Origin: a virus
Lineage: Duplodnaviria > Caudoviricetes
Strand: one strand, 5' to 3'
DNA: 28,506 bases
Virus record (IMG/VR): IMGVR_UViG_3300012041_000054
Span: 1 to 28,506 of that record
Below, in pieces: positions 3,431 through 22,652 of the stretch (the first letter of the stretch is position 1; each line of letters opens with the position of its first letter). A program made the position numbers and the translations under genes. Below the pieces are notes generated by a model. It made no database searches. It saw only the letters and a program-made list of their open reading frames with translations, and was not told the origin of the DNA.

Positions 3431-4477
3431 ATGCGCAAGCTCTTTTCGTTCACCTACGCGGCTCTGGCGGTGCTCGCACTGGCCGGACTCGCCGTCGCTC
3501 AGGGTGTCAGCTCGGGCGGTGCGTTCCTGCCGCTTCAGGACTACCAAGTCGCTGGCACGTGGCTGTTCAAACACACCACCGCCCCGATCAAACTCGAAGG
3601 CGCGACAGACAACGACTACGAAACTACGCTCATCGCGGCCGACCCCACGGCGGATCGCACGTTCACGTTCCCTGATACGAGCGGCACGCTCGCCGTGACC
3701 GACGCCACGCAGACGCTCTCTGGTACGTCCACGGTCACCGGCCGATGGTTCGTGCGCGACAGCTTCGACCAGGGCTACATCGTCGCCGAGAACGACGCGA
3801 CCGGGCTCCTGATTAAGTCGGTCACCGACACCGACGACAACGTCGTGATGGGCTCGCCGCTTGGGCTGATCTCCTACCGCGAGGAACTCGGCAAGACCGC
3901 GAGTTCGTGGGCGGTTGTCGACGGTTCGCTGGATATCAAAGGCGACAACACGACCGACAACGAGGGCGTCGAAATCGTGTTCGGTGGCGACGGGGCGAAT
4001 ACCACCGAAGGCGTCATCGTCGCTGGCACAAGCGGCGCGTGTCTCACCGTCAACCTCACGCTCACGGACATCAGCGGCACCGACCAACTCGTGATCGGCT
4101 GGCGTGACAACGCGACGTGGACCGACGCGGCCAACTACCAGGGCTATACGGTGTGGAACACGGTCGGGGTCACCGCCACGGACGGCTCGATTCTCTCGAG
4201 ACAGGAAGTCTCGGAGGCGACCGACGAGGACGACTCCGGCGTGAACATGGCGGACGGCGAGACGCGCACGTTCAAGTCCTGCATCAGTGCCGCAGGCGTG
4301 CCAACGGCCTACTACACAGCGGCTTCAGGCACCACGTTCACGGCGATCACGATGACCGAGACCGGGTCGACGCTCACGGCTGGCGTCCAGCTCTATCCGT
4401 TCCTCAGCTTTCTGACGGCTGGCACAGATGGGCCGAACCCGCTCATTAACTGGGTCCAACTCGAAGCCGCACCCTAA
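3431..4477 (+). CDS. Signal-peptide protein with a phage tail-fibre-type motif and a C-terminal beta-sandwich
   Basis: GAGG RBS. Sec signal MRKLFSFTYAALAVLALAGLAVA|Q. Contains LEGATDNDYETTLIAADPTADRTFTFPDTSGTLA, a motif recurrent in phage fibre proteins. 2 Cys. Confidence 0.7.
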   Translation: MRKLFSFTYAALAVLALAGLAVAQGVSSGGAFLPLQDYQVAGTWLFKHTTAPIKLEGATDNDYETTLIAADPTADRTFTFPDTSGTLAVTDATQTLSGTSTVTGRWFVRDSFDQGYIVAENDATGLLIKSVTDTDDNVVMGSPLGLISYREELGKTASSWAVVDGSLDIKGDNTTDNEGVEIVFGGDGANTTEGVIVAGTSGACLTVNLTLTDISGTDQLVIGWRDNATWTDAANYQGYTVWNTVGVTATDGSILSRQEVSEATDEDDSGVNMADGETRTFKSCISAAGVPTAYYTAASGTTFTAITMTETGSTLTAGVQLYPFLSFLTAGTDGPNPLINWVQLEAAP

Positions 4478-4502
4478 CCCTCGCGCGTAAGGAGTGACCG
4501 TC

Positions 4503-6647
4503 ATGACTCGACGCGCATGGGTGGGGCTCGCGCTCCTTCTCGGGGCGCTATTCGCCTTCACCACGCCAGTCCAGGCCCAGACCTCTGGGCCTTTCATTCT
4601 CTCGTCCGTCACGTGCACACCTGGCTACCCTGTCGCGAACAAGGGCAGCATCGGCGTCCAGATCAACGGCACCGGCACGTGGACGGCGGAGTTCCAGGGC
4701 TCGATCGATGGTGTGCGCTACGACGCCATCACGGCGACAGATCGCAGCGACACAACGCCAGCCCTCCTCACTGAAGTCACCGCCCAAGGTAGCTGGACCG
4801 GCAACGTCGGAGGCTTGAACAGCTTCCGCGTCTGCCTAACGGCCTACACGTCTGGCCAACCAGCTATTTGGATGGGCAATTCAGATAGCGGTGGCGCTGG
4901 CGGTGGCGGAGCAGGCGGCGCTGTCCCTTCTGCGGTGTCCGTGACGGACCTCGAAGACGGCGGAGGCGATTCCGTCGGTGACGTGGCGAACGACTCGATT
5001 CGCGTCACTATCGCGGCAGACGCGGTCGGCATCGGCGGCGGCATCCAATACACCGAAGCGGACATCGACGCGACGATCGTCGGCACGGCGATGATGATGG
5101 AGGGCGCCGGGAATACGCTCGTCGCCGCGCAAGGCACCGCGGCGAACGGGCTCGAGGTCGACGTTACCCGCGTCACGGGCACCGTCACGGTCGGCGCGAC
5201 CGATCTCGACGTGCAGAGCGGGGGCGCGGACATTCTCAGCACGACCGCGTTCAACACGACGCATAACGATGCCTTCGGCACGGCGGGATCGTCTGATAGC
5301 CAGGTCCGATCGATTCAGGGCATCGCCTCTGGCGTCGCGGTCACGGTCTCAGCGACCAACCTCGACGTGCAGAGCGGCGGACTCGACCTCTTACCTGGGC
5401 TCGCACAGAACGCCGCGACGAGCGGTCAGCCAGGTGCGCTCATCTTCGGCGCGGTCACCACGGCGGCGCCGTCCTACACCAACGCGCAATCGAGCGCGCT
5501 GTCGCTGACGGAGGCCGGCCTCCTCCGTGTCGCGGTCGAAGCAGGCGGCGGCACTGGCGGCACATCACAAGCGGACGGCGCGACCTACACAGCAGGCTCG
5601 ACGGCTGGCACGCCCATCATGGGGTTCTACGAAGCCTCGCCGTCAACCTGCACGACGGGTGACACGTGCGCCGCTGGCCTCACGACCAACCGTGAACTGA
5701 AGGTCAGTGTCACGAGCGGCGTGGCGTCTGGTCTGACCGATGGCGCCGCGTTCGTCGCGAATACCACGGTGGGACAGGGCTTGTTCGGCGTCTACGAATC
5801 GGCGCCAACGACGCTGACGGATAACGACTACGGGATGGCAGGGCTCACCGCGACCCGAGCAGTTCGTACACAGAACGAAATCGCTGGTGCAGCGATTTCC
5901 GGCTCGAACCCGTCCTACACCTACATCGTTTCAAATGGGTCGACCACTCCGATCACGATACCGGAGAGCCAAACCCAGAACTATCACACCGCAGCCGGCA
6001 CGGACACGATCGAATTGTTCGGGATGGCAATTCCATCAGCGAGTGGGGCTGTCGGCGTGGACTCGAATAACCCCTTTCCTGTGATCACGACGTCGGCTTC
6101 AGTGATCACGGCGGTCGGGAATGCGGCGCACGATTCACCCGCCACGGGAAACCCGCTCACGATGGGCGTGACTGCGCTGGCGTACGGCGCGGACCCAACC
6201 GCGGTGACGGCTGGCGATGTGACGCGCGCACATGCGAACCGCGATGGTGTGCTGTTTGTGCTCGGCGGCCACCCGAATATCCAAACCTACGAATTTCAAG
6301 TACAGGACGCGGACGGTGCACAGACCGATCTTGCAATGGCGACGTGTGGCACCGGTTGCAAGGTCGTTGTGACTGAGGCCGATGTCACCTGCGACCCGGA
6401 CACGTCCGACGATACGTCGATGCGTATGGGGTTCGGTACGGCGAACGTGCCATCAGGCGCGCATACCGGGACGGCTGGCGTGGTGCTCGCCTGGGACGGT
6501 ATTCCACAAGGCGGCGGCAGAATCCGCGGCGACGGCTCGGGGATTATCGGCGTTGGTGCTGACGGCGAGGATTTGCGGTTGACGATCGCTGACCCGGTTG
6601 GTGGTTCCTGCAACGTGCTCGTCTCTTACTTCACGATTGAGAGCTGA
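4503..6647 (+). CDS. Signal-peptide, G/T/A-rich fibre- or adhesin-like protein with internal repeats
   Basis: AAGGAG 8 nt before ATG 4503. Signal MTRRAWVGLALLLGALFAFTTPVQA|Q. N-terminal beta domain, Gly linker, repeats VTVxATxLDVQSGG x2. 8 Cys. Confidence 0.7.
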   Translation: MTRRAWVGLALLLGALFAFTTPVQAQTSGPFILSSVTCTPGYPVANKGSIGVQINGTGTWTAEFQGSIDGVRYDAITATDRSDTTPALLTEVTAQGSWTGNVGGLNSFRVCLTAYTSGQPAIWMGNSDSGGAGGGGAGGAVPSAVSVTDLEDGGGDSVGDVANDSIRVTIAADAVGIGGGIQYTEADIDATIVGTAMMMEGAGNTLVAAQGTAANGLEVDVTRVTGTVTVGATDLDVQSGGADILSTTAFNTTHNDAFGTAGSSDSQVRSIQGIASGVAVTVSATNLDVQSGGLDLLPGLAQNAATSGQPGALIFGAVTTAAPSYTNAQSSALSLTEAGLLRVAVEAGGGTGGTSQADGATYTAGSTAGTPIMGFYEASPSTCTTGDTCAAGLTTNRELKVSVTSGVASGLTDGAAFVANTTVGQGLFGVYESAPTTLTDNDYGMAGLTATRAVRTQNEIAGAAISGSNPSYTYIVSNGSTTPITIPESQTQNYHTAAGTDTIELFGMAIPSASGAVGVDSNNPFPVITTSASVITAVGNAAHDSPATGNPLTMGVTALAYGADPTAVTAGDVTRAHANRDGVLFVLGGHPNIQTYEFQVQDADGAQTDLAMATCGTGCKVVVTEADVTCDPDTSDDTSMRMGFGTANVPSGAHTGTAGVVLAWDGIPQGGGRIRGDGSGIIGVGADGEDLRLTIADPVGGSCNVLVSYFTIES

Positions 6648-6650
6648 TAC

Positions 6651-7109
6651 ATGGCGCGGACACACTTCACTGTTAAGACGCAAGTTCGGGAGGGTCGGTC
6701 GCTCAAGTTCGTTGCCGACTACCACGACGGGTCAGCCGTCGGACCGATCGTTGGTTCACAGACGTTCATCTGTGAAGCGGCGGCGACGAGAGCCGACCAA
6801 GAGAAGTTGATGGCCGCGGCGGTGAGGCGCGAGATCGTTGCCGAGGACGCGGCGATCGCGGCGCCGTTGCTGGTGCCGGCCAATACAACGATCGCGTTGA
6901 CTGCGGCTGACACGTTGACAGTCAACGAAACGCTAGTGAAAGACCTCCAGCAGAAATTACGCCGGCATCGGCTCGCGCAAAAGGCTGTTGTTGAGGGCGC
7001 GTTGACCGCGGCCGATAACCAAGTGGTTACGCGGAAAAACGAATTCGTCGCGGCGTTCGGCGCGCTCGTCACCGCAACGAATCTCAACACCGCGCTCGAT
7101 ATTCTGTGA
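6651..7109 (+). CDS. Hypothetical protein (no signal peptide)
   Basis: 152 aa ORF filling the gap between neighbours; its stop overlaps the next start (GTGATG). Confidence 0.65.
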   Translation: MARTHFTVKTQVREGRSLKFVADYHDGSAVGPIVGSQTFICEAAATRADQEKLMAAAVRREIVAEDAAIAAPLLVPANTTIALTAADTLTVNETLVKDLQQKLRRHRLAQKAVVEGALTAADNQVVTRKNEFVAAFGALVTATNLNTALDIL

Positions 7110-7810
7110 TGAAACGCCTGATCCTCGCGCTCTCGCTCGCCGGAGTGTTCGCGTTTGTCGGTAGCGTGCAGGCCGCGCTTCCGGCGAGCGCGAATTGCAA
7201 CAACGCGGGCGCAGGGCTCGATAGTGACTGGACTGGTATCACCCAAAACCTCCTGGCCTATGACGGGCTTGGTGCGTGTGCGGGATTCGCAGAGGCGTAT
7301 CAGGTTGCGTTATGGGCGACCGATGCATTCGGCGACGACCAATACACAGAAATCGTACTTGGCACGGTTGGGAGCGGCCAATTTGCGGCGCCTGCGGTGC
7401 GGCTCGCTGATGGGGCTGGAGATGACAATTCCCGAGGCTATTACTTGTTTTGTGGCAATGCGAGCGCGCCGTGCAATGTGCAGGAGTGCTCGGATGCTGC
7501 ACCGTCGTCGTGTGCGGTAATTGGCGAGTATTCGGAGTCTGGCACGACGGCCGACACGATGAAGATCGCGATCGCGGGCGCACGGTTCTATGTCTACAAG
7601 AACGGATCCGAGATGACCTGCGATGCTGGCTCCGGGTGTGCTGGCGGCGTGTTGACAGACAACACGTTTTCGAGCGGTAGCGGCGGCATGGCTGTTTACG
7701 GCTCTGGGACAATCGACTCATGGGCTGGAGATAATTTTGAGGCACCGCAAGGCGGCGGAGGAGGGAGTTGCGGGTTGCTCTTACTCGGGGTGAGTGTGCC
7801 ATGCGCGTAG
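7109..7810 (+). CDS. Secreted Cys-rich concanavalin/lectin-like beta-sandwich protein
   Basis: Signal MKRLILALSLAGVFAFVGSVQA|A. DDQY...PAVRL...GYYLF...FYVYKNG...FSSGSGGM...IDSWAGD pattern. 10 Cys. Ends GGGGGSCGLLLLGVSVPCA. Confidence 0.65.
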   Translation: MKRLILALSLAGVFAFVGSVQAALPASANCNNAGAGLDSDWTGITQNLLAYDGLGACAGFAEAYQVALWATDAFGDDQYTEIVLGTVGSGQFAAPAVRLADGAGDDNSRGYYLFCGNASAPCNVQECSDAAPSSCAVIGEYSESGTTADTMKIAIAGARFYVYKNGSEMTCDAGSGCAGGVLTDNTFSSGSGGMAVYGSGTIDSWAGDNFEAPQGGGGGSCGLLLLGVSVPCA

Positions 7811-10794
7811 TGGTCGCTGGCGTCGTCTTCGCGCTCGCGCTCCTAGCGTCGGCGTCCTCGGCTGACGCGGTGACGGCGGCCTCGTGCAACAGCACAAACG
7901 CACTCAACCATATCAACGAAGCCATCGCGGCGACGGCGGACGGCGGAACAGTGACCGTGCCGGCCGGCTCGTGCACGTGGACAAGGCAAGTCGTTCTCTC
8001 GGGTCGCAATGTCACGCTCGCTGGGGCTGGATCCTCGTCCACGCTGATTACAGCTGGTGTCTGTGGAGGGCAAGCGTCACTCGTGTGGAACACCAGCGGC
8101 GGCACACCGCGCCTGACCGGGTTCTCCTTTGTGAACTCGTGCGGGAATGACGGAAACTCTGGCGGCGGGATGATCAACATCAACGGCCAGACAGATAACC
8201 TCCGCATCGACCATAACGTATTCGTGCAGAGCGGTCAGGCGAGAGCCGTGATGATGCACGGCAACGGCATCTTCGGTGTGATGGATCACAATGTCTGCAC
8301 GTTCAACACGTCACAGTGTATTTTTCTCGTCCATTTGTATTCGTACTTAGGCGTCGGTCAGTACGGCGACAAGTCGTGGTCTGAGCCGACCAACATCAAC
8401 TCCGACGACTTCTTTTTCATCGAAGACAACGACTTTACCTGGGGAGGACCGACACAGTTTTGTCAAGTCGGGTTCGTGTGGGGATCAGATCAGCATAGCG
8501 GCGCGCGGTCATGGTTCCGCCGCAACCGGATGCACAACTGCGCCAACCTCTCCAACCACGGGGCTGAGACTGGTGGGCGCGCGGTTCGCAGTTCACGATT
8601 CTTCGGACTCCTCCAGAACACCTTTGACGTGCCAGCGAGTGCGGTGACGGCTGGCATCATCAGCACGCGCGGTGGGACGGGGCCGGTGATTGACAACCGT
8701 CTCACGATTGGTTCCGGAGGGTTCGTCAACGAGTTTATCGGGCTTGTCACATATCGCGGGGTGACATCGGAGACACGGACGTTCTACGTGTTCGGCGCGT
8801 CTGGTCAACGATCCGTCTCGAGCCTGACGTGCAGTGCTGGCGTGGCGATCGTGACGCTGACCACGGCGCGGGCTGGAACGTGCGACGACGGCAACGGTGG
8901 AGGGGCATGGATCACCATCGCCGGGGCGAGTCCGGCCGGGTTCAATGGCAACTGGATCGCGTATACCCCAGGCTTGGGATGTGGTGGAACATCCACGAAC
9001 AGCTCCCGCTACACAATCCCCGGTGGGTGTCCGGCAGCCTCTGCGACAGGAACGATCACCTATACCAGTCCTGCCGATCAGAATGCGACGGCCTCTGGGT
9101 ATCGCCTCTTCGATGGGGCTGGCGCGGGGCAAGGCGACTACATCTCTGGAACGTTCTTCACGCCAACGACATGGCCGAATCAGGCGATTGAACCGATCTA
9201 CATCGTCAACAACCTCGTCAACGGCTCACTCCAGAACGCCGAACACTTTCGGAATGCGTCTGACACGGTTCAATTTGAGAATATCCAGTACTACCTTGAT
9301 AACTCTGGCTGTGCCGCTCCAAGCGCCTGCACTTCAGGTGTCGGTCGTGGAACGCTTGCGAACCGTCCAACGTCGTGCACGTCCGGTGCTGCCTATTGGG
9401 TGACGAACGCAGGCGAATGGGATTCAACGGATGGCGAAGGGACTGTTTTTTCGCATGATAACGGGGCGTCTGCTCCGGCCGGAGCTGACGGGAGGCTCGA
9501 TATCTGTGTTGCTGGTGCGTGGTCCGATGGTGCGATCACCCCATACACCTATCCGCATCCGTTAGTGTCTGGGAGTCCGCCACCGAATTCGTCGCCGTCC
9601 ATCGCGATCACGTCGCCTGCGGCCTTCTTTAATACGACGGCGTCAACGCTGAACTTCTCCGGAACCTGTACCGATGACAGCGGCGCGTGCAGCAGCGTCT
9701 CGAGGTCGAATAGCAACGGCGGAGGGACGACGCCGGCGCCGGTGCTCGTTGGCTCGAACTGGACGATTACCGCAGGAGAAATCAATTCCGGTACGAATAC
9801 GTACACGGTCACGGGTAGCGATGGCACGTTGACAGGTAATTCGACGGCTTCGGTGTTGCGCCGGGCGGTGGTGTCGTCCTTGCCCTATACAGAAGATTGC
9901 TCGTCGTCGGTGGCGTGGCCGTCGCGCGGCGTGCACTTTACGCATTACGGCTCGACGCAGGCCGCGTACGGCATGACCTCCGGTCAATGCCGCACGAACG
10001 TCTTTGCGTTCGATGCGTCGGCGTTTACCGGGTTCTCGCTTACGACGAATCAGTATTTCAAGGTAAAGGTCTTCGACATTGCCGCGGTCTCCAAGCAACT
10101 CCGCCTCTGCGTCAACGTCACCGGGACGACGGGACAAAACAACGATCTCTCTGGGCTCTTTGTGCAGGTTGAGGCGTCTGGCGCCTCGGCGAATAACTTG
10201 ATCGGTCGGTACACGAACGGCGCGCTCGATCACGTGTACCAGTCCGGAATTAACGTGGGAACGATCACGCCTGGCGCGTCATTCGTTGAAGCACGGCGAG
10301 ACGGCGTCTTCCTCTATCTCGTTGTTGATGACGTGATTAAGGGCACGGCGGACGTCGGCTCCGGATTTCAAGGGGGCACGGTCGCTGATTGTTCCGTCGG
10401 CGTCGGAACGGCTTGGGACGACGGCGAGATCGGCAATGTCGATGCTGGCCCAGACGAAGACCCTCCGGTTCCGGTCATCGCCGTGCCGACGACGGACCCT
10501 GGCTATTTTACCGAGGAGGCGACGCTCGCAACGCTGTCTGGGGCTGTGACCGACAATGTCGGCGTCGTGAGTTGCACGTACGAAAGCAATCAAGGGCAGG
10601 GGCAAGTCGCGATGACGTTAGATATGGGCGATTTCTCTGCGTCTGACGTGCCGCTCGTCGTTGGCGTCAACGTCATCACGGTGCGCTGTTTTGATGCCTC
10701 TGTGCTCACGGGAGTCGATATCTTGACAGTGACGCGCGGCAATGAGGGGCAAGGCGGGCCACAAAGCCCGAGTGCGCTTCGGGGTATCTTCTGA
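7801..10794 (+). CDS. Large secreted multidomain protein: right-handed beta-helix + Ig-like + lectin-like + Ig-like
   Basis: Signal MRVVVAGVVFALALLASASSADA|V. Beta-helix start GGTVTVPAGSCTW, RIDHNVF, FFFIEDNDF, YTYPHPL. Two Ig-like units (PSIAITSP...GTCTDD...GTNTYTVTGSD; PVIAVP...GAVTDNVGV...GVNVITVRCFD). 24 Cys. Confidence 0.75.
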   Translation: MRVVVAGVVFALALLASASSADAVTAASCNSTNALNHINEAIAATADGGTVTVPAGSCTWTRQVVLSGRNVTLAGAGSSSTLITAGVCGGQASLVWNTSGGTPRLTGFSFVNSCGNDGNSGGGMININGQTDNLRIDHNVFVQSGQARAVMMHGNGIFGVMDHNVCTFNTSQCIFLVHLYSYLGVGQYGDKSWSEPTNINSDDFFFIEDNDFTWGGPTQFCQVGFVWGSDQHSGARSWFRRNRMHNCANLSNHGAETGGRAVRSSRFFGLLQNTFDVPASAVTAGIISTRGGTGPVIDNRLTIGSGGFVNEFIGLVTYRGVTSETRTFYVFGASGQRSVSSLTCSAGVAIVTLTTARAGTCDDGNGGGAWITIAGASPAGFNGNWIAYTPGLGCGGTSTNSSRYTIPGGCPAASATGTITYTSPADQNATASGYRLFDGAGAGQGDYISGTFFTPTTWPNQAIEPIYIVNNLVNGSLQNAEHFRNASDTVQFENIQYYLDNSGCAAPSACTSGVGRGTLANRPTSCTSGAAYWVTNAGEWDSTDGEGTVFSHDNGASAPAGADGRLDICVAGAWSDGAITPYTYPHPLVSGSPPPNSSPSIAITSPAAFFNTTASTLNFSGTCTDDSGACSSVSRSNSNGGGTTPAPVLVGSNWTITAGEINSGTNTYTVTGSDGTLTGNSTASVLRRAVVSSLPYTEDCSSSVAWPSRGVHFTHYGSTQAAYGMTSGQCRTNVFAFDASAFTGFSLTTNQYFKVKVFDIAAVSKQLRLCVNVTGTTGQNNDLSGLFVQVEASGASANNLIGRYTNGALDHVYQSGINVGTITPGASFVEARRDGVFLYLVVDDVIKGTADVGSGFQGGTVADCSVGVGTAWDDGEIGNVDAGPDEDPPVPVIAVPTTDPGYFTEEATLATLSGAVTDNVGVVSCTYESNQGQGQVAMTLDMGDFSASDVPLVVGVNVITVRCFDASVLTGVDILTVTRGNEGQGGPQSPSALRGIF

Positions 10795-10814
10795 AATGGT
10801 CGACAATAGGACAT

Positions 10815-11177
10815 ATGACTAGACTGTTCGCCCTCACCCTGATCGCCGTGCTCGCGGTGACCGTGTCCGTGGTCGCCCAGGAGACACCGGAAGCCGTCCC
10901 GGCTGAATTCACGGCGCTCCAGAAGCAGGTCACCGAACTGCAGCAGCAGCTCGCGAATCAGACCAAGCTATTCCTGCAGCTCCAGCAGCAACTCACGCAG
11001 GTACAGCAGTCCGTCTCAAAGCAGTCACCGGAGGACCAGCAGCAGGCGCTCGCCGGGAACATCGAGGCAGGCGAACAGGAGATTCGACAGACGTGCCGGG
11101 AGAAGCGCGCCCGTTGGTTAGTGCTCCTCGGCATAGTCGACGGCAAGCTGACGCGATTCGTCGGCTGCGTCGACTGA
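10815..11177 (+). CDS. Signal-peptide Gln-rich coiled-coil protein
   Basis: AGGA RBS. Signal MTRLFALTLIAVLAVTVSVVA|Q. Heptad segment LQKQVTELQQQLANQTKLFLQLQQQL. 2 Cys. Confidence 0.7.
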   Translation: MTRLFALTLIAVLAVTVSVVAQETPEAVPAEFTALQKQVTELQQQLANQTKLFLQLQQQLTQVQQSVSKQSPEDQQQALAGNIEAGEQEIRQTCREKRARWLVLLGIVDGKLTRFVGCVD

Positions 11178-11179
11178 CG

Positions 11180-11199
11180 CGTTAGAACATCGTTAGAAC
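11180..11199. repeat. 9-bp direct repeat CGTTAGAAC x2 (11-bp period) containing GAAC-N7-GAAC
   Basis: CGTTAGAAC at 11180-11188 and 11191-11199, intergenic. Confidence 0.6.
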
Positions 11200-11224
11200 C
11201 GGTCGGGCTATCGAACAAACCGAG

Positions 11225-11268
11225 GCCCGGCGTGTTGAGTCCACTGCGACTCCGCGCCGGGCTTTTTT
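11225..11268 (+). terminator. Intrinsic terminator
   Basis: GCCCGGCGTG / CGCGCCGGGC stem, TT bulge, GAGTC / GACTC upper stem, then T6. Confidence 0.8.
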
Positions 11269-11285
11269 CTTGTGGAGCCGTCCAT

Positions 11286-14041: not shown

Positions 14042-14043
14042 CG

Positions 14044-14823
14044 ATGGCGAAGCAGAACGAGCAACAACTCGACCAGTTCAACCAACAGCTTCGGGCGAAT
14101 CCTCGGTATCAGCAATACCTGCAATCGCTTGGCGTCAACACGAACGTGGCGCCGGGCCAGGCGTGGCGGCTCTCTGACCAGCAGCGCAAGCAGGCCGAGG
14201 CGTGGGTCAAGTCCAACGTGGGGGATATCGGCGGGCTCGAGATCGACGGCAGCGGGAATGCGAACCAGAACGAGGGATTCGGGAAGCAACTGAAGCGATA
14301 TGGACCGATTGCGGGCGGGGTCGCCCTCTCCCTGTTTGGGATTCCTGGAGTGTTCCCCGGCCTGCTCTCGGGTGGCAGCGGAGCGGCAGCGGGAGGCGCG
14401 GCGGCCCTCGATGCCGCGCCATCGGCCGCCACTGGCGCGGCGAATATGGCGAACATGGGATGGACGATGGCACCCGCGGCGGCGGCGACGAGCGTCGCGC
14501 CGGCCGTCGGGACCATCGGCGCCACAGCGCCAGCGGCGGCTGGAGGCATCTTCTCGGGCCTCAAGAGCCTCGCCTTGCCCTTGGGCATCAACGCCGGGGC
14601 CAACATCATCGGGGGCGTGATGCAGTCACGCGCGGCCAACAACGCGGCCCAGACGCAGACCGAGGCGGGCGATCGCGCGCTGAACTTCCTGCGCGAGCAG
14701 TACGTGAACCAACAGCAGAACCTGCAGCCCTACATGACCGCTGGACGGGGCGCGCTCGACACGCTCCAACGAGCCATCCCGCAGGGTGTGCCCTTGTCTG
14801 GATACGGCTCGGTGCGCCGGTAA
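14044..14823 (+). CDS. DNA ejection (pilot) protein, N-terminal-type half
   Basis: Gly/Ala-rich with hydrophobic segments. IIGGVMQSRAANNAAQTQ...REQY...NLQPYMTAGRGAL motif of podovirus DNA-transfer proteins. Confidence 0.65.
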   Translation: MAKQNEQQLDQFNQQLRANPRYQQYLQSLGVNTNVAPGQAWRLSDQQRKQAEAWVKSNVGDIGGLEIDGSGNANQNEGFGKQLKRYGPIAGGVALSLFGIPGVFPGLLSGGSGAAAGGAAALDAAPSAATGAANMANMGWTMAPAAAATSVAPAVGTIGATAPAAAGGIFSGLKSLALPLGINAGANIIGGVMQSRAANNAAQTQTEAGDRALNFLREQYVNQQQNLQPYMTAGRGALDTLQRAIPQGVPLSGYGSVRR

Positions 14824-14836
14824 TGGAGAGTCTCTG

Positions 14837-16024
14837 ATGTCAGTGATGACCGCGGAACAGGGGGCGCCGTTGGCGGAACAGGCGAATCAACAGCAGTGGG
14901 TGAAGGATACCGGCCGCGAGTCCTTGCATTGGGCCGTGATTCCGCAGGCGTATCGCGGGATTCCCGGTATCGAGCAATGGGCAAACGATCCCAACATCGA
15001 CCCGTACAAGGATCGAATCGAACCGTATCTCAACGCGCAGCGCGCCGCAGCTCCGGCAGGAACAGCCAATGCCGCCGACCAGGGCGACGCCCAACTCCTG
15101 CTCAATCAATTCGGCCAGCAACCCGCAGGGCCAGCCGCACCAGCGCCATCTAGCGGCTCGTTCACTGGTGGCACGTCGCTCGGGAGCGCCTACGCCCCGT
15201 ACACGAGCCTGCAAGCGCCGACACCCTATCAGCCCTACGGAGAGACGTTCCAGGCGCCAGAGGGCACGATGGACCAGTGGGGGCAGACGTTTACCGCGCC
15301 CACGCGGCCAGAGGATCTCGACGACCCGTGGGGCCAGACGTTCAAGTTCGACGCATCGGACCTCGAAAACGACGAGGGGTATCAGTTCCTTCAGAACCAA
15401 GGCATCGAGGCTCGCAAGCGTGCAGCGGCCGCGGGCGGGTATCTGAACAACCCCGGTCTGGCGAACGAGCTTGAGGAATTCGGACAAGGGCTCGCCGCGA
15501 CGCACTTGGGCGACGTCTACAACCGGCAACTGAGCACCTACGGGACGAATTACGACACGTTCTCCGGCGACAGGTCCAGGCGCTCAGGCGAGGCCGACAA
15601 GACGTACAACGAGGCCCTGGGCGCCTACAACACCAACTACGGCACGTTCTCGAACGACAACGCGCAACGGTTCAATCAGGCGCTTCAGGGCTACCAGACG
15701 CGGGCGGGCGTCCACGACCGCAACGAGGCGGGCCGCTTCGGCTCGCAGACGAACAACTGGACGAACAGCTTCAACCAAGGCCGCGCGACTGAGAACGACG
15801 CCTGGGACCGCCAGTTCCGCGTCGCCGACTACGGCCTCGCGGCCGCGGGCGGTCTGAACAACGCCTCGGGCACCTTCGGCGCGCAAGGCTCCGACATCAT
15901 GCAGAACCAAGGCAACGCGACCGCCGCGGGCCAGGTCGGTGCGGCCAACGCGTGGGGAAACACCTTCGGCAACATCGCCGACTACGGACAGACCATCCCC
16001 TATCTGCAGCGGAGGCTGATCTGA
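14837..16024 (+). CDS. DNA ejection protein, C-terminal-type half
   Basis: GGAG RBS before ATG 14837. DEGYQFLQNQG...RAAAAGG...FGQGLA and QGNATAAGQVGAANAW motifs. N/Q/G-rich. Confidence 0.7.
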   Translation: MSVMTAEQGAPLAEQANQQQWVKDTGRESLHWAVIPQAYRGIPGIEQWANDPNIDPYKDRIEPYLNAQRAAAPAGTANAADQGDAQLLLNQFGQQPAGPAAPAPSSGSFTGGTSLGSAYAPYTSLQAPTPYQPYGETFQAPEGTMDQWGQTFTAPTRPEDLDDPWGQTFKFDASDLENDEGYQFLQNQGIEARKRAAAAGGYLNNPGLANELEEFGQGLAATHLGDVYNRQLSTYGTNYDTFSGDRSRRSGEADKTYNEALGAYNTNYGTFSNDNAQRFNQALQGYQTRAGVHDRNEAGRFGSQTNNWTNSFNQGRATENDAWDRQFRVADYGLAAAGGLNNASGTFGAQGSDIMQNQGNATAAGQVGAANAWGNTFGNIADYGQTIPYLQRRLI

Positions 16025-16680
16025 TGGCGGGGGCGCTCTTTGTCACGCCCTACCCGGAGTTCGACACCATCGACGGGATTCCCCTCGTCAATGGCTCGCT
16101 GTCGTTCCTCGTGGACGGCGAACCGTCGCGTGTCTGGTCGCACCAGGCCATCATCACGGCCGGCGATTTCAAAGAAGGGCACCGCGTTCCGACGCTCGGA
16201 TCGTATGTGCAGCTGAACGCGACGGGCCGTCTCCAAGGCGACGGCGGAGCGCCGGTCAACATCTGGGTCGATCCGCTCGTGGCCTACGACATCACGGTCA
16301 AAGCCTCGGACGGATCAACCGTGTGGTCTGTGCCGGGGTATCGACAACCCGATCCGAGTCCGCTCATTCCGCAGTCACAGTCTGTGCGGACGAATCCCAC
16401 GGTGCTTACGCCCGTGTATGGCGTGCACCGATTCGAGCCGCCGACGGCCGCCATGCTGTGCGCGCTCACCGAGCCGACTGACGTCGAGGAAGGGATCGAA
16501 CTGCATCTCCAAGCCGCGACAGCCTTCGCGCACGTCGTGTTGATTACCTCGGGTATCGCGGGGAACGGGGCGGGTGTCGATACGGCGACCTTTGGCGGCG
16601 CGATCGGCGACGGGATCACGCTCATCGCCGTCGATGGGTTTTGGCATCTCGTCGCGAGCAGAAACGTGGTGCTCTCGTAA
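16024..16680 (+). CDS. Short tailspike head-binding-like protein (paralog 1)
   Basis: TGATG coupling. N-terminus PEFDTIDGIPLVNGSL...VQLNATGR resembles podovirus spike head-binding domains. Paralog of the next gene. Confidence 0.6.
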   Translation: MAGALFVTPYPEFDTIDGIPLVNGSLSFLVDGEPSRVWSHQAIITAGDFKEGHRVPTLGSYVQLNATGRLQGDGGAPVNIWVDPLVAYDITVKASDGSTVWSVPGYRQPDPSPLIPQSQSVRTNPTVLTPVYGVHRFEPPTAAMLCALTEPTDVEEGIELHLQAATAFAHVVLITSGIAGNGAGVDTATFGGAIGDGITLIAVDGFWHLVASRNVVLS

Positions 16681-17303
16681 TGGCTGGCGCGTTATTCGTC
16701 CCTCCGTATCCGCAGTTCCGAGACGACGACGGCTCACCGCTCGCGTTCGGGGGTGTGCTGTTCTTCATCACCGGATCCGCCACGCCGATTGACGTCTACG
16801 AGGACCAAGAGCTTCTCACGACGCTTGGCGCGAACGTCTCGCTCGATGAGGGCGGGCGCCCGGTCAACGGGTCCAATACGCCCGTGAGCATCTGGATTGA
16901 TGCGGCCTTCGCCTACAAGGTGCGCGTGCAGCGCGTCGATGCCACGCTCGTGCGCGAAGTGGACCCCTATCGGCAGGGGGATCCGAATCGCACCGGATTC
17001 GAACGGGTGAACTATACCGCCGATGGCGCGTTGTCGGTCGTCCACGGGCTCCACAAAATCAGCAAGACATCAGCCGCGGCGATGACCCTCACGAATCCGA
17101 CCTCACTTGAGGAGGGATTCGTGATGCACATTCGCGCGACGACCGCGTTCGCGCATACGGTCACGCTGTCAGGGGGATTCGCGGGTGCTGGTGCAGGCGC
17201 CGACGTCGCGACGTTCGCGGGCGCCGTCGGAGACGGCTTTCAAATCGTTGCGGTGAACGGCCTGTGGCACGTCGTCGCGCTCACCAACGTCACGCTCGGA
17301 TAA
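16680..17303 (+). CDS. Short tailspike head-binding-like protein (paralog 2)
   Basis: TAATG coupling. PQFRDDDGSPLAFGGVLFFITGSATPIDVYED...VSLDEGGR is a typical spike/fibre attachment domain. Confidence 0.65.
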   Translation: MAGALFVPPYPQFRDDDGSPLAFGGVLFFITGSATPIDVYEDQELLTTLGANVSLDEGGRPVNGSNTPVSIWIDAAFAYKVRVQRVDATLVREVDPYRQGDPNRTGFERVNYTADGALSVVHGLHKISKTSAAAMTLTNPTSLEEGFVMHIRATTAFAHTVTLSGGFAGAGAGADVATFAGAVGDGFQIVAVNGLWHVVALTNVTLG

Positions 17304-17321
17304 CGGAAAAGAGAGAGACCG

Positions 17322-17750
17322 ATGGCGAACATGGTAACGAATAGAGGCAAATACGAGGTCTTTACCCTCGATGTGGCCGCCCAGGATCTGCGCGTGCTCC
17401 TCCTGAAGACCTACAGCGTGCTGGACATCGACGACAACGTGATCGACGACCTCGTGCCTGGCACCAACGAAGTCAGCGTCGGCGGCTATTCGCGTCAAAC
17501 GCTCGCGGGCGAAACGATCACAGAGGATGACTCCGCCAACGTCGCGTATCTCGACGCCACTGATCCGGTGTTCACGTCGTTGGTGACTGGCGAAACGGTG
17601 CAGGGCGCGATCCTCTTCCGGCACACGGGCTCGGATGCGACGGCGCCGGTCTGGGCTGGCTACGATCTTACTGACACTCCGACCAACGGCGGCAACATTA
17701 CGGTGCAATTCCAAGCGCCCGCTTCTGGCGGCGCATTACAGGGGGCGTGA
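17322..17750 (+). CDS. Small acidic virion structural protein (tail/fibre-associated family)
   Basis: EVSVGGYSRQTL...YLDATDPVF...TNGGNITVQF pattern common in phage minor structural proteins. Confidence 0.65.
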   Translation: MANMVTNRGKYEVFTLDVAAQDLRVLLLKTYSVLDIDDNVIDDLVPGTNEVSVGGYSRQTLAGETITEDDSANVAYLDATDPVFTSLVTGETVQGAILFRHTGSDATAPVWAGYDLTDTPTNGGNITVQFQAPASGGALQGA

Positions 17751-17757
17751 CGTGTCG

Positions 17758-18150
17758 ATGTTCAATTTCTTTCGCAAGTCCGGCACTGGCGCCACGGCCG
17801 CCGTCCAGCAGGTGACGCCCATTACACCGGTGGAAGTGCGCGACCTCTCCGGCACGATGAAATACCACGTGACGTGGGTGTGCACTGGCCCGAAGTGCAC
17901 GATCGGGAAGCCAGGCCACGAGCCGAAGAAGGCGACCATCACCATCCACGCGCGTGACGAACGCCCAGACGGGCCGAGCAACTTCGTCGCGGTCAAGGGA
18001 GGGCATTCGAAACTGCCCTCTTCAGACCTCACATGGAACGGGCTCATCGAGGAGCGCGGCTGGAAAAGCAATCCCGTGCTGTGCCCTGCCTGCCAGCGCG
18101 GCATGACGATCCGTGAATACAAAGAGCATCGTCGGAAGGGCGGGCTGTGA
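17758..18150 (+). CDS. Putative Zn-binding protein
   Basis: CTGPKC and CPAC pairs. Start is ATG 17758 or GTG 17752. Confidence 0.55.
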   Translation: MFNFFRKSGTGATAAVQQVTPITPVEVRDLSGTMKYHVTWVCTGPKCTIGKPGHEPKKATITIHARDERPDGPSNFVAVKGGHSKLPSSDLTWNGLIEERGWKSNPVLCPACQRGMTIREYKEHRRKGGL

Positions 18151-18446
18151 AACAGCGACGTTGGTTCTGCCAGTCTTGCGGGCGCGAGTGGATTGCTCCG
18201 TTCGATGGGTGTGACCCGGACTCGGCTCCATTCCGCGTGATCCCTGCAGGCGGGATCGTCGAAGTGGAGTGGCAACCGGAGATGGGGTGCCCGATGCCTG
18301 GGTGCGGTTGGGAGGGGATCACGCTTGTGGAATACACGCCTGCGTTCCCTGGCGGGGACATTTCGCGCGAGCAGCATCTTGCGCCGCCGCCTCCTCCACC
18401 GATCACGCCTCCGCTCTTGCAGCGGTTTCTAGGGCTCTTTCGATGA
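18147..18446 (+). CDS. Zn-ribbon protein with Pro-rich tail
   Basis: GTGA overlap. WFCQSCGREW...CPMPGCG. Confidence 0.55.
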   Translation: MKQRRWFCQSCGREWIAPFDGCDPDSAPFRVIPAGGIVEVEWQPEMGCPMPGCGWEGITLVEYTPAFPGGDISREQHLAPPPPPPITPPLLQRFLGLFR

Positions 18447-18559
18447 CGCACCACTGGTTTTGCAAGCTCTGTCGATATGAATGGCGAACGATCCTGCCTG
18501 TCGCGTCCTGTCAGTGCGGCAGTCGATCTCTCGCCGTAGTGACGGTGACACCGAAATGA
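18443..18559 (+). CDS. 38-aa Zn-ribbon microprotein
   Basis: ATGA overlaps at both ends. MTHHWFCKLCRYEW...CQCGS, similar to the N-terminus of the preceding ORF. Confidence 0.5.
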   Translation: MTHHWFCKLCRYEWRTILPVASCQCGSRSLAVVTVTPK

Positions 18560-18978
18560 AGCACTCCTTGAACGACGGCGCCGGGTTTCTTGAGATCGAC
18601 CACCGCGAGAGCCCAGGCATAGACCCGGCCACGCTACCCGCGGGGTTTATCACGGCGCCAGGCGGGCAACTCTTGGAGCGGGACACGAAGTCCTGCCGGC
18701 ACTGTCAACGGACGGTTGTGCTTAATCCTGGCCGCGTGCGTGCGCGAGCGGTGTGTCAGAAGTGCTACGGCTACATCTGCGACGAGTGCGAGAAGGTTCG
18801 CGCCGTCACGGGTCAGTGCGTGCCCTTCATGCTGCAGCTCGATCGCGCGGAGGCGCTCATCGAGAAATACGCGGGAGACCCTGAACACCCGAAGTCGCTG
18901 GTGACGCCCGCTGATGTGTCTGGCCAAGCGGCGCCGACCATCGCCGTGCCGTCATCGATCACGCTCACAGACGTGTAA
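18556..18978 (+). CDS. Cys-rich multi-CxxC Zn-finger protein
   Basis: ATGA overlap. CRHC-x16-CQKC-x4-CDEC-x9-C. Confidence 0.65.
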   Translation: MKHSLNDGAGFLEIDHRESPGIDPATLPAGFITAPGGQLLERDTKSCRHCQRTVVLNPGRVRARAVCQKCYGYICDECEKVRAVTGQCVPFMLQLDRAEALIEKYAGDPEHPKSLVTPADVSGQAAPTIAVPSSITLTDV

Positions 18979-18994
18979 GGAGAACACATCCCAT

Positions 18995-19765
18995 ATGCTG
19001 CCGACCGTTGCACCTGAAGCCATCGACTACGTTGTGCGCCCTGGCACCGTCCACGTGATTGTGCCGTGCCGCCCAGACCACGCGCGCCACGTCGAGTTCT
19101 TCTCGATGTTGCTTCAGCTGCGGTTGCCTCCCGGCTCATCGGCCGACCTCTATCCTGGCTTCTTCCCACACGACAACCGGTGCAAGGGTGTGCGGGATGC
19201 CCTGCTGCACGGCTCTGAATACTGCTTCTTCTTGGATGACGACCAACTTCTCGAGCCCGACACCGTCTTGCGGCTCCTGTCGCACGGCAAAGACATCGTG
19301 ACGGTGAATCTCCTCACGAAGGAATTCCCCTGGCAACCCTACATCTTCGAGCGACTCAAGGGGCACAACGATGTGTTTCCTCTGAGTCTGGAGAATAAGC
19401 GCGGGCTACATGCCGTTGATGCGTGCGGGCTCGGTGGTGTGCTGGTCAAGACCTCGGTCCTCACAAGGCTCGACTACCCCTGGTTCAACGTCAACGAGAC
19501 GTGGCGCACCGACGATCTCTATTTCTGCGACAAGGCGCGCACGGCGGGATTCGAGATTCACTGCGACTTCGACGCAATCTCCTGGCACATCACGCACGCA
19601 GCGGTCGCACCGGAATGGAACGAAGAGACCCACACCTGGCAGACGCGGATTCGCATCTCCAGCAAGGGAGAGGTCGCGATGAAGGCCGCGGTCTGGGGGC
19701 CTGACTACGAGGCGTGGCGATCACAACAAGAGTCCGCGTTCGAGGCGGAACTAACACGGAAGTAA
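18995..19765 (+). CDS. GT-A fold (family 2-like) glycosyltransferase
   Basis: AAGGAG RBS. VHVIVP, YCFFLDDD (DxD), DACGLGGVLVKTSVL and DDLYFCDKARTAGFEIHCD motifs. Confidence 0.85.
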   Translation: MLPTVAPEAIDYVVRPGTVHVIVPCRPDHARHVEFFSMLLQLRLPPGSSADLYPGFFPHDNRCKGVRDALLHGSEYCFFLDDDQLLEPDTVLRLLSHGKDIVTVNLLTKEFPWQPYIFERLKGHNDVFPLSLENKRGLHAVDACGLGGVLVKTSVLTRLDYPWFNVNETWRTDDLYFCDKARTAGFEIHCDFDAISWHITHAAVAPEWNEETHTWQTRIRISSKGEVAMKAAVWGPDYEAWRSQQESAFEAELTRK

Positions 19766-19780
19766 AGAGGAGTCTCACAC

Positions 19781-20278
19781 ATGGCTCGATGGTCAACTTC
19801 AATTCCAACGTGGACGACTGGCTCTGGCGTGGCCGATACAACCTCGTTCACGGACAGCAATCACCACACGATTCAGGGCGGGACCACGGTCCAGCGCGGG
19901 GAAATGCGCGAGATTTACCTTGCCGGGCAGGCCGCCGCGTCTGCGCCGCAAATCGCGTGCTTCGGGCGCACGTCCACCGTCGGAGCAACCTTGACGGCGC
20001 TCCGTATGGCGGCGCTCGATCCCTCGACTGAGGCCCTTGGCACGAACGCCACGGCGTTCGCGGTCTCCACAACCAAGCCAGGGCGCAGTAACACGCTCGG
20101 GATGTTGGTCGGCTGCGGCTTCAACGCCTTCGGCGGCATCGTCCGCTGGACGAACGGCCCAGACCAGATCATCAGCTACTTGGGGAAGGCGGCGAGCTTC
20201 GGGGAACTGTCGCTCAACTTCTTCACGGGCAACGCGACGGCGTCGATTCAATCGACGTTGATGTTCGAAACGCTGTAA
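19781..20278 (+). CDS. Hypothetical beta-rich, probably virion-associated protein
   Basis: Strong GAGGAG RBS. 165 aa, T/G/A-rich, GFNAFGGIVRW. Confidence 0.65.
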   Translation: MARWSTSIPTWTTGSGVADTTSFTDSNHHTIQGGTTVQRGEMREIYLAGQAAASAPQIACFGRTSTVGATLTALRMAALDPSTEALGTNATAFAVSTTKPGRSNTLGMLVGCGFNAFGGIVRWTNGPDQIISYLGKAASFGELSLNFFTGNATASIQSTLMFETL

Positions 20279-20284
20279 CCCGTC

Positions 20285-20674
20285 ATGCGGCGGGCCTGTC
20301 TGATCGCGGCACTTGTGGCGTGGGCGGTAATCTCCGCTCACGCGCAAGGCATCGTGACGACACCGAGTTCGGATATCTCGGTCACCGTGGCGATCTTCGC
20401 CTCGACGGCCACGGACCCCAACGTCGACGTGCATGTCTCTATCCGGGGCTACAACAAGGCTGACTGTGGCGGGTATACGTTCGTCGAGGAGTCTGGCCCC
20501 TTCGTCAACCCGACGACGTTCTACTACCCGGTCGTGCAGGACGTAACGACCTACGAATGCCGCGTCGATGTGACGCAGCAAGTCGCCGAACTCCCCAACG
20601 GGAGTTACAAGGCGTCGATCAAGAGAGGCAGCGCGACGTTCATGCCACTGAGTTCGACCTTCACCCGATCATGA
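20285..20674 (+). CDS. Small secreted protein (paralog A)
   Basis: Signal MRRACLIAALVAWAVISAHA|Q. 2 Cys in the mature part. Confidence 0.65.
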   Translation: MRRACLIAALVAWAVISAHAQGIVTTPSSDISVTVAIFASTATDPNVDVHVSIRGYNKADCGGYTFVEESGPFVNPTTFYYPVVQDVTTYECRVDVTQQVAELPNGSYKASIKRGSATFMPLSSTFTRS

Positions 20675-21171
20675 TTCCATTCCTCCTCGCCCAACTCGTA
20701 ACGCTGGTGGTCTTCAACGCCGCTGGCGCGGTGGTCTCCAGCCAGGTCTACACGGTCGAATGCGGGCTCGTGCCGAAGCTGGTGCAGGAAGTGCCAGTCA
20801 TCGATCCGGTCGAAGCGTATGGCGACGACCAAGCAGACCCGACGAAGGACTGCCGCGCGTTGATTGCCGCGCAGATTCAGGCCCTTCCCTACGGGACTGG
20901 CTACAAGATGGCGGCGCTCAAAGAGGACGGCACGTATGGCCCGCCATCGGTGCCCTTTCAGGCCGGGACGCCTCCTCCTCCGCCGCCAATCAAGACGTGC
21001 GTCTACCTCGGCGTCTACTACGGAGCGCCGTTCACGTTCCAAAGCGACTTCCAATGGGACGCGACCAAGGCGGCAGCGAACGCCGCGGCGATGCAGGCGG
21101 ACGGCTGGACGCTAGTGCAGACGAAGAAAGCGAACAAGAAATGGCAGTGGTGGAGGGCAACGTGCGTATAG
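20671..21171 (+). CDS. Small, possibly secreted protein (paralog B) with Pro linker and extra C-terminal domain
   Basis: ATGA overlap. Hydrophobic N-terminus MIPFLLAQLVTLVVF. Aligns with ORF 20285. 4 Cys. Confidence 0.6.
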   Translation: MIPFLLAQLVTLVVFNAAGAVVSSQVYTVECGLVPKLVQEVPVIDPVEAYGDDQADPTKDCRALIAAQIQALPYGTGYKMAALKEDGTYGPPSVPFQAGTPPPPPPIKTCVYLGVYYGAPFTFQSDFQWDATKAAANAAAMQADGWTLVQTKKANKKWQWWRATCV

Positions 21172-22652
21172 GGATCGGCATCGCGGCAGTCGCACTCGCG
21201 CTCGCTGCGGCGCCTGCCTCGGCTCAAGTCGCCTTCCCAGGCGCCGAGGGATTCGGGTCCACAACGCGCCACGCCTACGCTGGCTCGGCCACACCGGATA
21301 TTTGCCGCGTCACGAACACGAATAACTCAGGCGACGGGTCACTGCGAGAGGCACTCGCAGGCACAGGTGGCGGGACCAGTGAGATAGATTGCGACCACGA
21401 TCCTCGCATCGTTATTTTTGAGACAAGTGGGCTGGTAACACTGACCACGAGTATCGAGATCAACGATCCATATGTGTTCGTGGCTGGTGAAACGGCTCCT
21501 CAGCCTGGGTTCGCAGTCAAGGGATGCGGCATCTACGTCTCTGGTTTCAGCACAGACACGGCCCACGATGTGGTCATTCGACATGTCGTGGTCGCTCCAG
21601 GTGGCACATGTGACTCAAACGGTGGCTTGACTATTCAATACCCTGATGGTGGGGCAAACGCGAATATCGTCATCGACCATGTGTCGATTTTCTGGTCCAA
21701 CAACGAAAGCACGTCGGCTTTTGGGAATCCGACATTCGGCAACGTCACCTATTCCAATTCGTTCATCACGGAAGGGCTCAACAGTGCAGAGATTGGCAGC
21801 GGTGGTCCTATTGCTGCGGGCACGTCCGGAGCGAGCCCAATAACAAATGTTAGTTACATCCGGAATCTCTTCGCCCACATGCCCCGTCGTGGATGTATCT
21901 GGCAGTGGCAGCAAACTGAAGCGGCATTTATCAACAACGTCTGCTACAACGCCGCGAATACCGATGCGTCTCGGGCGCATTGGTTTACGTGTTCAGATGG
22001 GACTGCCCCTCCGGGATCACAAAACGGCCCAACGGATGGGAGCGTCTACTCGATTTTCCAAGGCCAATCGTATATCAAAGGCCCCACGGACCCCGATGGC
22101 CCCGTTGCAATTCAGTGGGACGATAACGGCACCTGCAACTTTAGTGGGGGCACTTACAAAATCTACCGAGACGACAACGTCTCTGATCCAAACGGCGGGA
22201 CAGCGTGGACGATGTTCTACAACCCGGCTGGTCGGCCCGATCCCAACGTAGGCACACCGCCCGTTGAACTTGAAGTAAGCACGGGCGTCAACATTCTCGA
22301 TGTCGTGACGATTCTTAGTGGATCAGCCACCGAAGCCTATGTGTTGGCGAACAGCGGGGCGTTCCCGGTGAGCCGCAATTCACACGATTCACGCATGGTG
22401 ACTGAGGTCGGGGCCTACACTGGATCAATCAAGACGAGTTCCACGTTTGGAGAGGGATCGCCAGGCACTTGGCCTACGTTCACCGTCAACACCATTGACC
22501 ATAGTAGCGGCACGCACCCGCGCCCGGCCTCGCCGCATACGGTGAGCACTGGTGGCTACACCAATCTTGAACTCTGGGTGGCGAGCTACGGGTGCGAAGT
22601 CGAGAACGGCTCAGATTGTTGGGGCGAGTCTGACCGAGTGAGGTTGCGGTAA
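21162..22652 (+). CDS. Secreted pectate lyase (PL1)-like beta-helix protein
   Basis: GGAGG then GTG 21162. Signal ...ALALAAAPASA|Q. AFPGAEGFG, VTNTNNSGDGSLREAL, PRIVIFETSG, AGETAP and IVIDHVS motifs. 10 Cys. Confidence 0.8.
   Translation: MRIGIGIAAVALALAAAPASAQVAFPGAEGFGSTTRHAYAGSATPDICRVTNTNNSGDGSLREALAGTGGGTSEIDCDHDPRIVIFETSGLVTLTTSIEINDPYVFVAGETAPQPGFAVKGCGIYVSGFSTDTAHDVVIRHVVVAPGGTCDSNGGLTIQYPDGGANANIVIDHVSIFWSNNESTSAFGNPTFGNVTYSNSFITEGLNSAEIGSGGPIAAGTSGASPITNVSYIRNLFAHMPRRGCIWQWQQTEAAFINNVCYNAANTDASRAHWFTCSDGTAPPGSQNGPTDGSVYSIFQGQSYIKGPTDPDGPVAIQWDDNGTCNFSGGTYKIYRDDNVSDPNGGTAWTMFYNPAGRPDPNVGTPPVELEVSTGVNILDVVTILSGSATEAYVLANSGAFPVSRNSHDSRMVTEVGAYTGSIKTSSTFGEGSPGTWPTFTVNTIDHSSGTHPRPASPHTVSTGGYTNLELWVASYGCEVENGSDCWGESDRVRLR

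Follow-up and report, generated by a model that had tools for sequence, protein, structure and literature searches.

Particles of tailed phages are, in the prevailing view, completed in the cytoplasm before lysis, and to our knowledge the known tailspikes fold in the cytoplasm and carry no signal peptides. Virion proteins made with Sec-type signals are familiar from the inoviruses, in which pIII and pVIII of M13/fd are made in this way, pIII acquires its disulfides in the periplasm, and the coat proteins are membrane-anchored and added in a non-lytic extrusion. Signal-bearing genes are also found in structural operons (lambda Lom and Bor, T5 Llp, T4 Spackle), where their products are small, membrane-bound or periplasmic, and lack virion domains. 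Here we describe a window comprising an entire 28.5-kb virus record (IMGVR_UViG_3300012041_000054, positions 1 to 28,506), which holds the late operon of an uncultured, P22-like phage with a short tail and in which genes for proteins with predicted signal peptides and even numbers of cysteines stand among the virion genes (genes are named by their start positions). Unlike the inovirus coat proteins, these exported proteins have no membrane anchor and are encoded by a tailed, P22-like phage; unlike Lom, Bor, Llp and Spackle, they include fibre, lectin and docking-domain proteins and are conserved in position. We propose that the set probably passes through Sec, folds with disulfides in the periplasm, and then docks on finished particles at or after lysis, with a docking step that we infer.

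In Agrobacterium phage Milano (PMC10811340, PMC10491603), the disulfides are between core subunits of tail, neck and baseplate, and the words 'signal peptide' occur 0 times in the main text of PMC10811340. Milano and the present phages are alike in having many disulfides, here predicted, in tailed-phage proteins; here, in contrast, the core is Cys-poor and the Cys pairs lie in signal-bearing proteins. The P22-type tailspikes (PDB 7eeq, 9vyg/9vyh, P22 gp9) have the same docking domain as 16024, 16680 and the spikes of relatives. For P22, the available part of 10.1101/2021.09.20.461090 describes the spike attached through its head-binding domain as required, and reports that purified tailspike binds P22 heads in vitro, so that finished heads accept it outside the cell. 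In contrast to P22, the spike carries a signal in relatives of the window phage; in the window itself, the docking proteins are short and signal-less and are encoded apart from the large exported ones. The literature searched, mostly open papers, yielded no account of virion parts that are exported in tailed phages, and the available parts of PMC10811340, PMC11445458, 10.1101/2021.09.20.461090 and 10.1101/2020.10.09.334284 describe no exported tailed-phage structural proteins.

A sequence-only reading of this DNA had named eight open reading frames as exported, seven with clear signals and one borderline, and all eight are present at the starts it gave, on the + strand. Our own script, which requires a basic n-region, an uncharged h-region and small residues at −3/−1, picks exactly the same seven (3431, 4503, 7109, 7801, 10815, 20285 and 21162) among the 30 window proteins. 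With this rule, shuffled proteins give 0.32 calls in total and fake internal starts 21/6220 (0.3%); these rates, together with conservation in homologues, led us to reject chance or a start-codon artefact as the source of the signals. The eighth, 20671, fails the rule because its n-region is not basic; phmmer nevertheless identifies it as paralogous to 20285 (E 5e-5), and the cysteines of the two align. By the rule the seven are predicted Sec/signal peptidase I substrates, and cleavage would leave an N-terminal Gln in 5/7. No membrane-like segment follows the signal in any of the eight, and the mature parts of the exported set contain no lipobox-type anchor or barrel-like C-terminus, the sole lipobox flag, in 7801, being located beyond an A-D-A site. 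The set consists of:

3431..4477, + strand: signal peptide (1-23), GGAF/fibre module and ConA-like lectin domain; Cys204/Cys284 invariant.
4503..6647, + strand: signal peptide, fibre-like, 714 aa, 8 Cys.
7109..7810, + strand: signal peptide, 233 aa, 10 Cys; phrog_2804 'virion structural protein' (E 1e-4); GC content at third codon positions (GC3) 0.66.
7801..10794, + strand: signal peptide, multi-domain, 997 aa, 24 Cys; GC3 0.70.
10815..11177, + strand: signal peptide, Gln-rich coiled-coil-like, 2 Cys; weak Rz-like match to phrog_739 (E 0.005).
20285..20674, + strand: signal peptide and small domain, 2 mature Cys.
20671..21171, + strand: paralogue of 20285 with a hydrophobic start lacking a basic residue (borderline signal), 4 Cys.
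21162..22652, + strand: signal peptide (GTG start), pectate-lyase-like, 10 Cys; PDB 9buj (E 4e-8); phrog_27797; GC3 0.62.

The mature Cys counts agree with those given earlier (2, 8, 10, 24, 2, 2 and 10, with 4 in 20671). An all-even count in 7/7 signal proteins has a p of about 0.002-0.008 taken alone, and the pattern is firm because relatives show it too. The cysteines had also been described as often lying in local pairs, which holds for 7109 (successive spacings 27, 7, 8, 6, 11) and fails for 3431, where they are 80 apart. The companion statement that signal-less proteins mostly have 0 or odd counts came from a selective list: among 22 such proteins, 11 have zero, 7 odd and 4 even counts (2640, 17758, 18995 and 19781), so that the contrast had been drawn slightly too clean. 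As to coupling with neighbouring genes, 7109, 7801, 20671 and 21162 overlap the preceding gene; 3431, 4503, 10815 and 20285 start 6-86 bases behind it.

Whether homologues keep their signals, a check proposed with the sequence-only reading, can be answered for 3431, with 97 full-length homologues among the 120 matches listed, the window copy included. The rule is passed by 85/97; the 12 that fail comprise 3 that seem cut at the start and 9 that are signal-like by eye. Mature Cys counts are even in 84/85 of the signal-positive homologues. The other 23, weaker matches share just a short fibre motif, and since 22/23 of them fail the rule, this motif also occurs in signal-less proteins. In 67/97 homologues a small beta-barrel domain, DEC, follows directly behind the signal; these 67 have four invariant Cys, and an optional third pair is present in full in 30, absent in 37 and represented by a single Cys in 0. 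Judged from the sequences, cysteines are gained and lost strictly in pairs in the 3431 and DEC families. Signal retention and paired cysteines give good support to the idea of export with oxidative folding, which we regard as very likely for the set, and 3431 is a clade-conserved core member of that set.

The fold confirms the lectin label attached earlier to the exported proteins for the 3431 family only. A model of homologue P0042 (predicted local distance difference test, pLDDT, 86.7) assigns the C-domain common to the family to the ConA/legume-lectin fold, also seen in the Shewanella prophage protein SO2946 (PDB 2a5z; VIA Z 15.5, root-mean-square deviation 4.2, 215 aligned, identity 13%) and in the ConA-like phage receptor-binding domains 9n6a and 5ly8. 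Many cellular lectins and glycanases give equal fold scores, and the fold shows no function. The GGAF/fibre profile has no useful sequence match in the PDB; in some ten distinct loci the N-terminal GGAF module of 3431 is also found on the gene that follows the one for DEC (a small beta-barrel domain described below), and it is a candidate docking piece. No member of the 3431 family occurs among 50,697 GenBank phage records, and a host search found no relative of the 3431 alignment or of 21162 in 185,579 species genomes; Ca. Limnocylindrales, the label given to one homologue by its source, was set aside as too weak a pointer to the host. Among sequencing runs, none of RNA was listed as containing this DNA, and the single DNA run listed may be its source. 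A signal with a 3431-family lectin domain is also encoded at L064:2698-4065 and L035:5535-6434, in phages whose head and neck are of a different type, L064 having a siphophage-like look by eye; this module therefore moves between phage types.

A first natural experiment that ties export to virion parts comes from the gene next to the capsid gene:

1380..2594, + strand: P22-type major capsid protein (PF11651, E 7e-33); no signal or leader, 0 Cys.
2640..3344, + strand: signal-less two-domain protein (DEC and X); hhalign 92.8%, E 4e-7 to the 3431-family alignment.

DEC, the N-terminal half of 2640, occurs in virion proteins, and the DEC-bearing homologues of 3431 occupy the position of 2640, immediately 3' of the capsid gene. 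A Cys pair lies within DEC in 67/67 of these homologues and, in copies taken from loci, in 17/17 export-type vs 0/6 signal-less forms. An unbiased set was obtained by searching with the signal-less 16680, where 29/149 new matches have the 2640-type DEC and X layout: the Cys pair is present in 11/11 signal-bearing proteins vs 0/7 complete signal-less long forms (2640 among the 7; one truncated sequence and 11 short forms without the segment excluded). The tree of these DEC and X proteins needs 5 state changes, 1 of them from the truncated sequence, and 0/200 bootstrap trees have one change, so that repeated switching between signal and no signal is likely. 2640 is the predicted cytoplasmic counterpart of the exported, Cys-paired orthologues, and is likely a capsid decoration, given its position next to the capsid gene. 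DEC profiles match siphophage tail-tip/baseplate-hub chains (8vjh, E 5e-8; 8rk3, E 4e-6), and Foldseek gives weak hits (best E 6e-4) to tail tube, tailspikes, capsid, baseplate hub and F1-ATPase barrels. The hub of JBD30 contains a six-stranded barrel (PMC11445458), presumably the region that is matched; the name 'beta-tulip' for the matched barrel was not confirmed, the word being absent from that paper.

A second link is provided by the tailspike head-binding domain, found in two consecutive genes of the window:

16024..16680, + strand: short signal-less protein, tailspike head-binding domain and X domain; profile A3 vs PDB 7eeq E 1e-18.
16680..17303, + strand: second signal-less protein with head-binding domain and X domain.

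The N-domains of both are tailspike head-binding domains; the chains (218 aa for 16024 and 207 aa for 16680) end in the X domain and have no beta-helix receptor-binding body. The X domain (~95 aa, C-terminal), which they share with the signal-less 2640-3344, has 1334 representatives, is frequent in uncultured phages and has no family name; a role for it as a dedicated docking site found no support, the domain being common and 16/149 of the carriers examined having signals themselves. The head-binding-domain profile does not match any of the window's seven signal proteins. Among head-binding-domain proteins from the loci examined, 5/14 carry a signal (that of G003 counted from an internal Met). 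The whole records G001, G002 and G003 each contain one match to the domain: the protein of G001 is signal-less, and its orthologues in G002 (95% complete) and in G003 (86% complete) have a signal, the domain of G002 also containing a new CxxC. Since spikes of P22-like phages are required and attach by means of this domain, the signal-bearing proteins of G002 and G003 are, by analogy, probably particle parts. The sequence-only reading had proposed that the exported proteins become virion appendages or, alternatively, that the phage remodels the host surface; the appendage version gains real support from relatives, whose virion-type proteins, including a sole head-binding-domain protein, carry a signal. 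For this genome it is a prediction: the capsid-adjacent protein and both head-binding-domain proteins are signal-less, and no docking partner emerged. On balance we predict that the exported set joins the particle.

Signal genes are concentrated in the same part of related genomes. Between capsid and hub, excluding duplicates and the window's own copy, they account for 29/61 genes in 9 family loci vs 1/42 in 13 distant P22-like loci, and still for 18/50 in the family loci once the bait genes are removed (p 5e-5). Cys counts in the family loci are even, odd and zero in 34, 7 and 4 signal proteins and in 35, 50 and 59 others. Within whole records, signal genes make up 6/16 of the virion module and 0/23 outside it in G002, and 2/22 and 0/27 in G001. 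Signal-bearing spikes or fibres are also encoded in distant phages outside the 3431 family (L016:17883-20297; L017:3154-4173, 8896-10557 and 10802-11650; L085:4982-12480), some of them with odd Cys counts.

In at least nine family loci the major capsid protein itself carries a leader of 45-60 aa, without Met at the usual start, that consists of a basic start, a hydrophobic helix, an acidic linker and a G-L-L-L-A-N-T-type junction:

L028:6778-8172, L029:7337-8674, L030:4362-5708, L031:8061-9425, L045:2991-4331, L051:2356-3708 and L073:7867-9201: capsid proteins with leader.
L033:6815-8150 and L038:7150-8460: capsid proteins with leader, ends approximate; L052 probable.

Every leader locus has the exported form of DEC; the loci with signal-less DEC (the window, L001, L036, L059 and G001) have no capsid leader, and L027, L044 and L063 combine exported DEC with a leaderless capsid protein. 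The leaders, together with scaffold proteins that lack them, suggest a further route in which hydrophobic starts hold subunits at a build site on the inner membrane, mature parts remain cytoplasmic or are handed to the particle, and disulfides form upon release; that Milano makes many disulfides without export also fits. For the exported set we regard such tethering as very unlikely, as its seven signals are of the classical n/h/c type with basic n-regions and A-x-A-type sites, from which export is predicted, the capsid protein of this genome has no leader, and Cys pairs track the signal.

The exported proteins differ in how closely they resemble the core genes. GC3 is core-like in 3431, 10815, 20285 and 20671 (0.80-0.83), 0.75 in 4503, and 0.62-0.70 in 7109, 7801 and 21162, with 21162 the lowest among the large genes. 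The last three look like recently gained cargo, and from their sequences 7801 and 21162 look like secreted proteins acquired together with their signals. Relatives of 4503 in phage contigs are signal-bearing in L085, within a run of five signal genes, and signal-less with 0 Cys in L086; a likeness of 4503 to XepA (feature score 0.89, template-modelling score 0.35 by target) was kept as a weak lead only. Among 7801 homologues, 11/17 pass the signal rule; 7801 has no useful PDB sequence match, and the beta-helix label once given to it was not confirmed, in contrast to 21162 with its pectate-lyase match. Identification of 21162 as a PelZ of polysaccharide lyase family 1 was rejected, since it is related to NF041900 (E 6e-30) yet its 104 bits fall far below the curated cut-off of 840. 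A spanin reading of 10815 would call for an anchor that is not cleaved and for a lipoprotein gene overlapping it close to lysis genes; the predicted site is V-V-A|Q, and inspection of the other + frames by eye showed no lipoprotein reading frame. Among the homologues of 7801, P0147 (1642 aa) has a Cys-rich start like window gene 18556 and is a fusion or has a mis-called start.

These features invite two explanations in which the exported proteins never join the particle. As accessory (moron-like) envelope proteins they would remain periplasmic or become part of the host surface, remodelling it or blocking superinfection; the pectate-lyase-like 21162, the bacterial-secreted look of 7801 homologues, the lower GC3 of 7109, 7801 and 21162, the precedent of Lom, Bor and Llp as exported accessory genes within late operons, and the retention of signal-less head-binding proteins in the window all agree with this. 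We nevertheless consider it unlikely, since the mature parts have none of the anchors, membrane segments or barrel-like ends listed above, and exported forms that replace the capsid-adjacent gene and the sole head-binding-domain gene in relatives would be left unexplained. As free helpers, by comparison, they would accumulate in the periplasm and, once lysis frees them, act in soluble form as glycanases and lectins, cutting capsule or slime, or as decoys; the soluble, anchor-less enzymes and lectins fit, best of all 21162, 7801 and 7109. This too has a small chance in our estimate, for it accounts neither for the head-binding and DEC domains kept on exported proteins nor for their fixed post-capsid position.

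Several points weigh against periplasmic folding followed by docking on the particle. In this genome a complete particle may not require the exported set, because 2640 and both head-binding-domain proteins are signal-less, and the counts for G001, a complete family member with just two signal genes in its virion module, mean that few exported parts can be enough for such a phage. A signal-less spike could be concealed in the missing parts of G002 and G003. The DEC barrel is a common fold, F1-ATPase matches included, and a capsid role for it is inferred from gene position; well-supported branches of the DEC and X tree force just one gain or loss of the signal. The p-values overstate independence because the homologues are related. 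Tailed-phage disulfides need no export, as the available part of PMC10811340 indicates for Milano. Most of the 24 Cys in 7801 are not conserved, 7801 and 21162 resemble ordinary bacterial secreted proteins of lower GC3, and 7109, 7801 and 21162 could act off the particle. Among the exported proteins, the clade-conserved 3431 offers the strongest case for docking, and 7109, 7801 and 21162, with their low GC3, offer the weakest; mixtures of mechanisms are likely, the cargo tier being least certain.

The remainder of the window supports its assignment to the P22-like phages, with P22-type coat, scaffold, adaptor, gp10-type hub and ejection proteins in order and without a tail tube or tape measure:

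303..1355, + strand: head scaffolding protein (phrog_8865, E 1e-26); no signal, 0 Cys.
6651..7109, + strand: signal-less 152-aa protein with 1 Cys and no assigned role.
11286..12020, + strand: head-tail adaptor (PF24175, E 1e-7); no signal.
12021..13553, + strand: P22 gp10-type tail hub/head closure (phrog_578, E 1e-63); no signal, 5 Cys.
14044..16024, + strand: two DNA-ejection proteins (14044 and 14837; phrog_598); no signal, 0 Cys.
17322..20278, + strand: signal-less cassette of a phrog_644 protein, small Cys-rich proteins, the glycosyltransferase-like 18995, and 19781.
22652..25855, + strand: signal-less 22652, repeat-rich 23333 (0 Cys) and 25538.
25855..28506, + strand: ejection-type protein, then the first part of a giant protein of ejection/virion-polymerase type that runs off the contig end (phrog_30335, phrog_2206; synteny in L033).

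All called genes are on the + strand and most abut; portal and terminase are outside the window and, by eye, lie upstream in L001. A strong hairpin of 14 pairs with a T run (179-218), terminator-like, lies 5' of the scaffold gene; promoter and terminator scans of the window gave no excess over shuffles, and no tRNA genes were found in it. The segment 17322-25855 forms a ten-kb block inserted between the ejection genes, and its glycosyltransferase-like gene raises the possibility of particle glycosylation; since homologues of 17322, 17758 and 23333 precede the scaffold gene in L038, the block moves. In other loci the post-capsid cluster includes a membrane-protein-like gene pair resembling membrane glycosyltransferases by eye (L043:3595-4952, L044:3362-4578, L045:6199-7571, L051:5607-6226), and homing-endonuclease-like genes, also by eye, are inserted beside the capsid gene or within the cluster (L029:8697-9503, L053:296-937, L028:11520-12191, L043:1139-1546). 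On the reverse strand of G001 (47293-49823), a Radical-SAM-like gene and neighbouring genes lie behind the tailspike genes, by eye.

In the course of events that we propose, fibre-, lectin- and glycanase-type genes with predicted Sec signals would be transcribed late, their products would be exported through Sec and cleaved, host-catalysed disulfides would form in the periplasm, and the proteins would be stored there and would bind finished P22-like particles once the envelope breaks. The core and, in this genome, the direct particle contacts 2640, 16024 and 16680 would be made in the cytoplasm. Because core and contacts are cytoplasmic, the exported proteins would need 2640, 16024 or 16680, or the capsid or tail, as landing sites. 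Annotation practice is affected as well, a signal peptide being currently taken to mean 'not structural', and matched pairs (2640 and its signal-bearing orthologues; the spike of G001 and the exported ones of G002 and G003) would allow tests of the idea in which no phage need be cultured.

For the family as a whole, we lean slightly towards the view that a widespread, uncultured P22-like group builds its core and packages its DNA in the cytoplasm, and that its decoration, lectin fibres and sometimes the essential tailspike are exported, disulfide-locked and added at lysis, with parts that switch routes, signal and Cys pair coming or going as one, and with the capsid protein tethered to the membrane in some lineages. 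If this is true, the many secreted, disulfide-dependent lectins and glycanases of the host could be borrowed by phages almost unchanged, enzymes that cut the envelope would be kept apart from assembly, and these phages would depend on the Sec and Dsb systems of their hosts.

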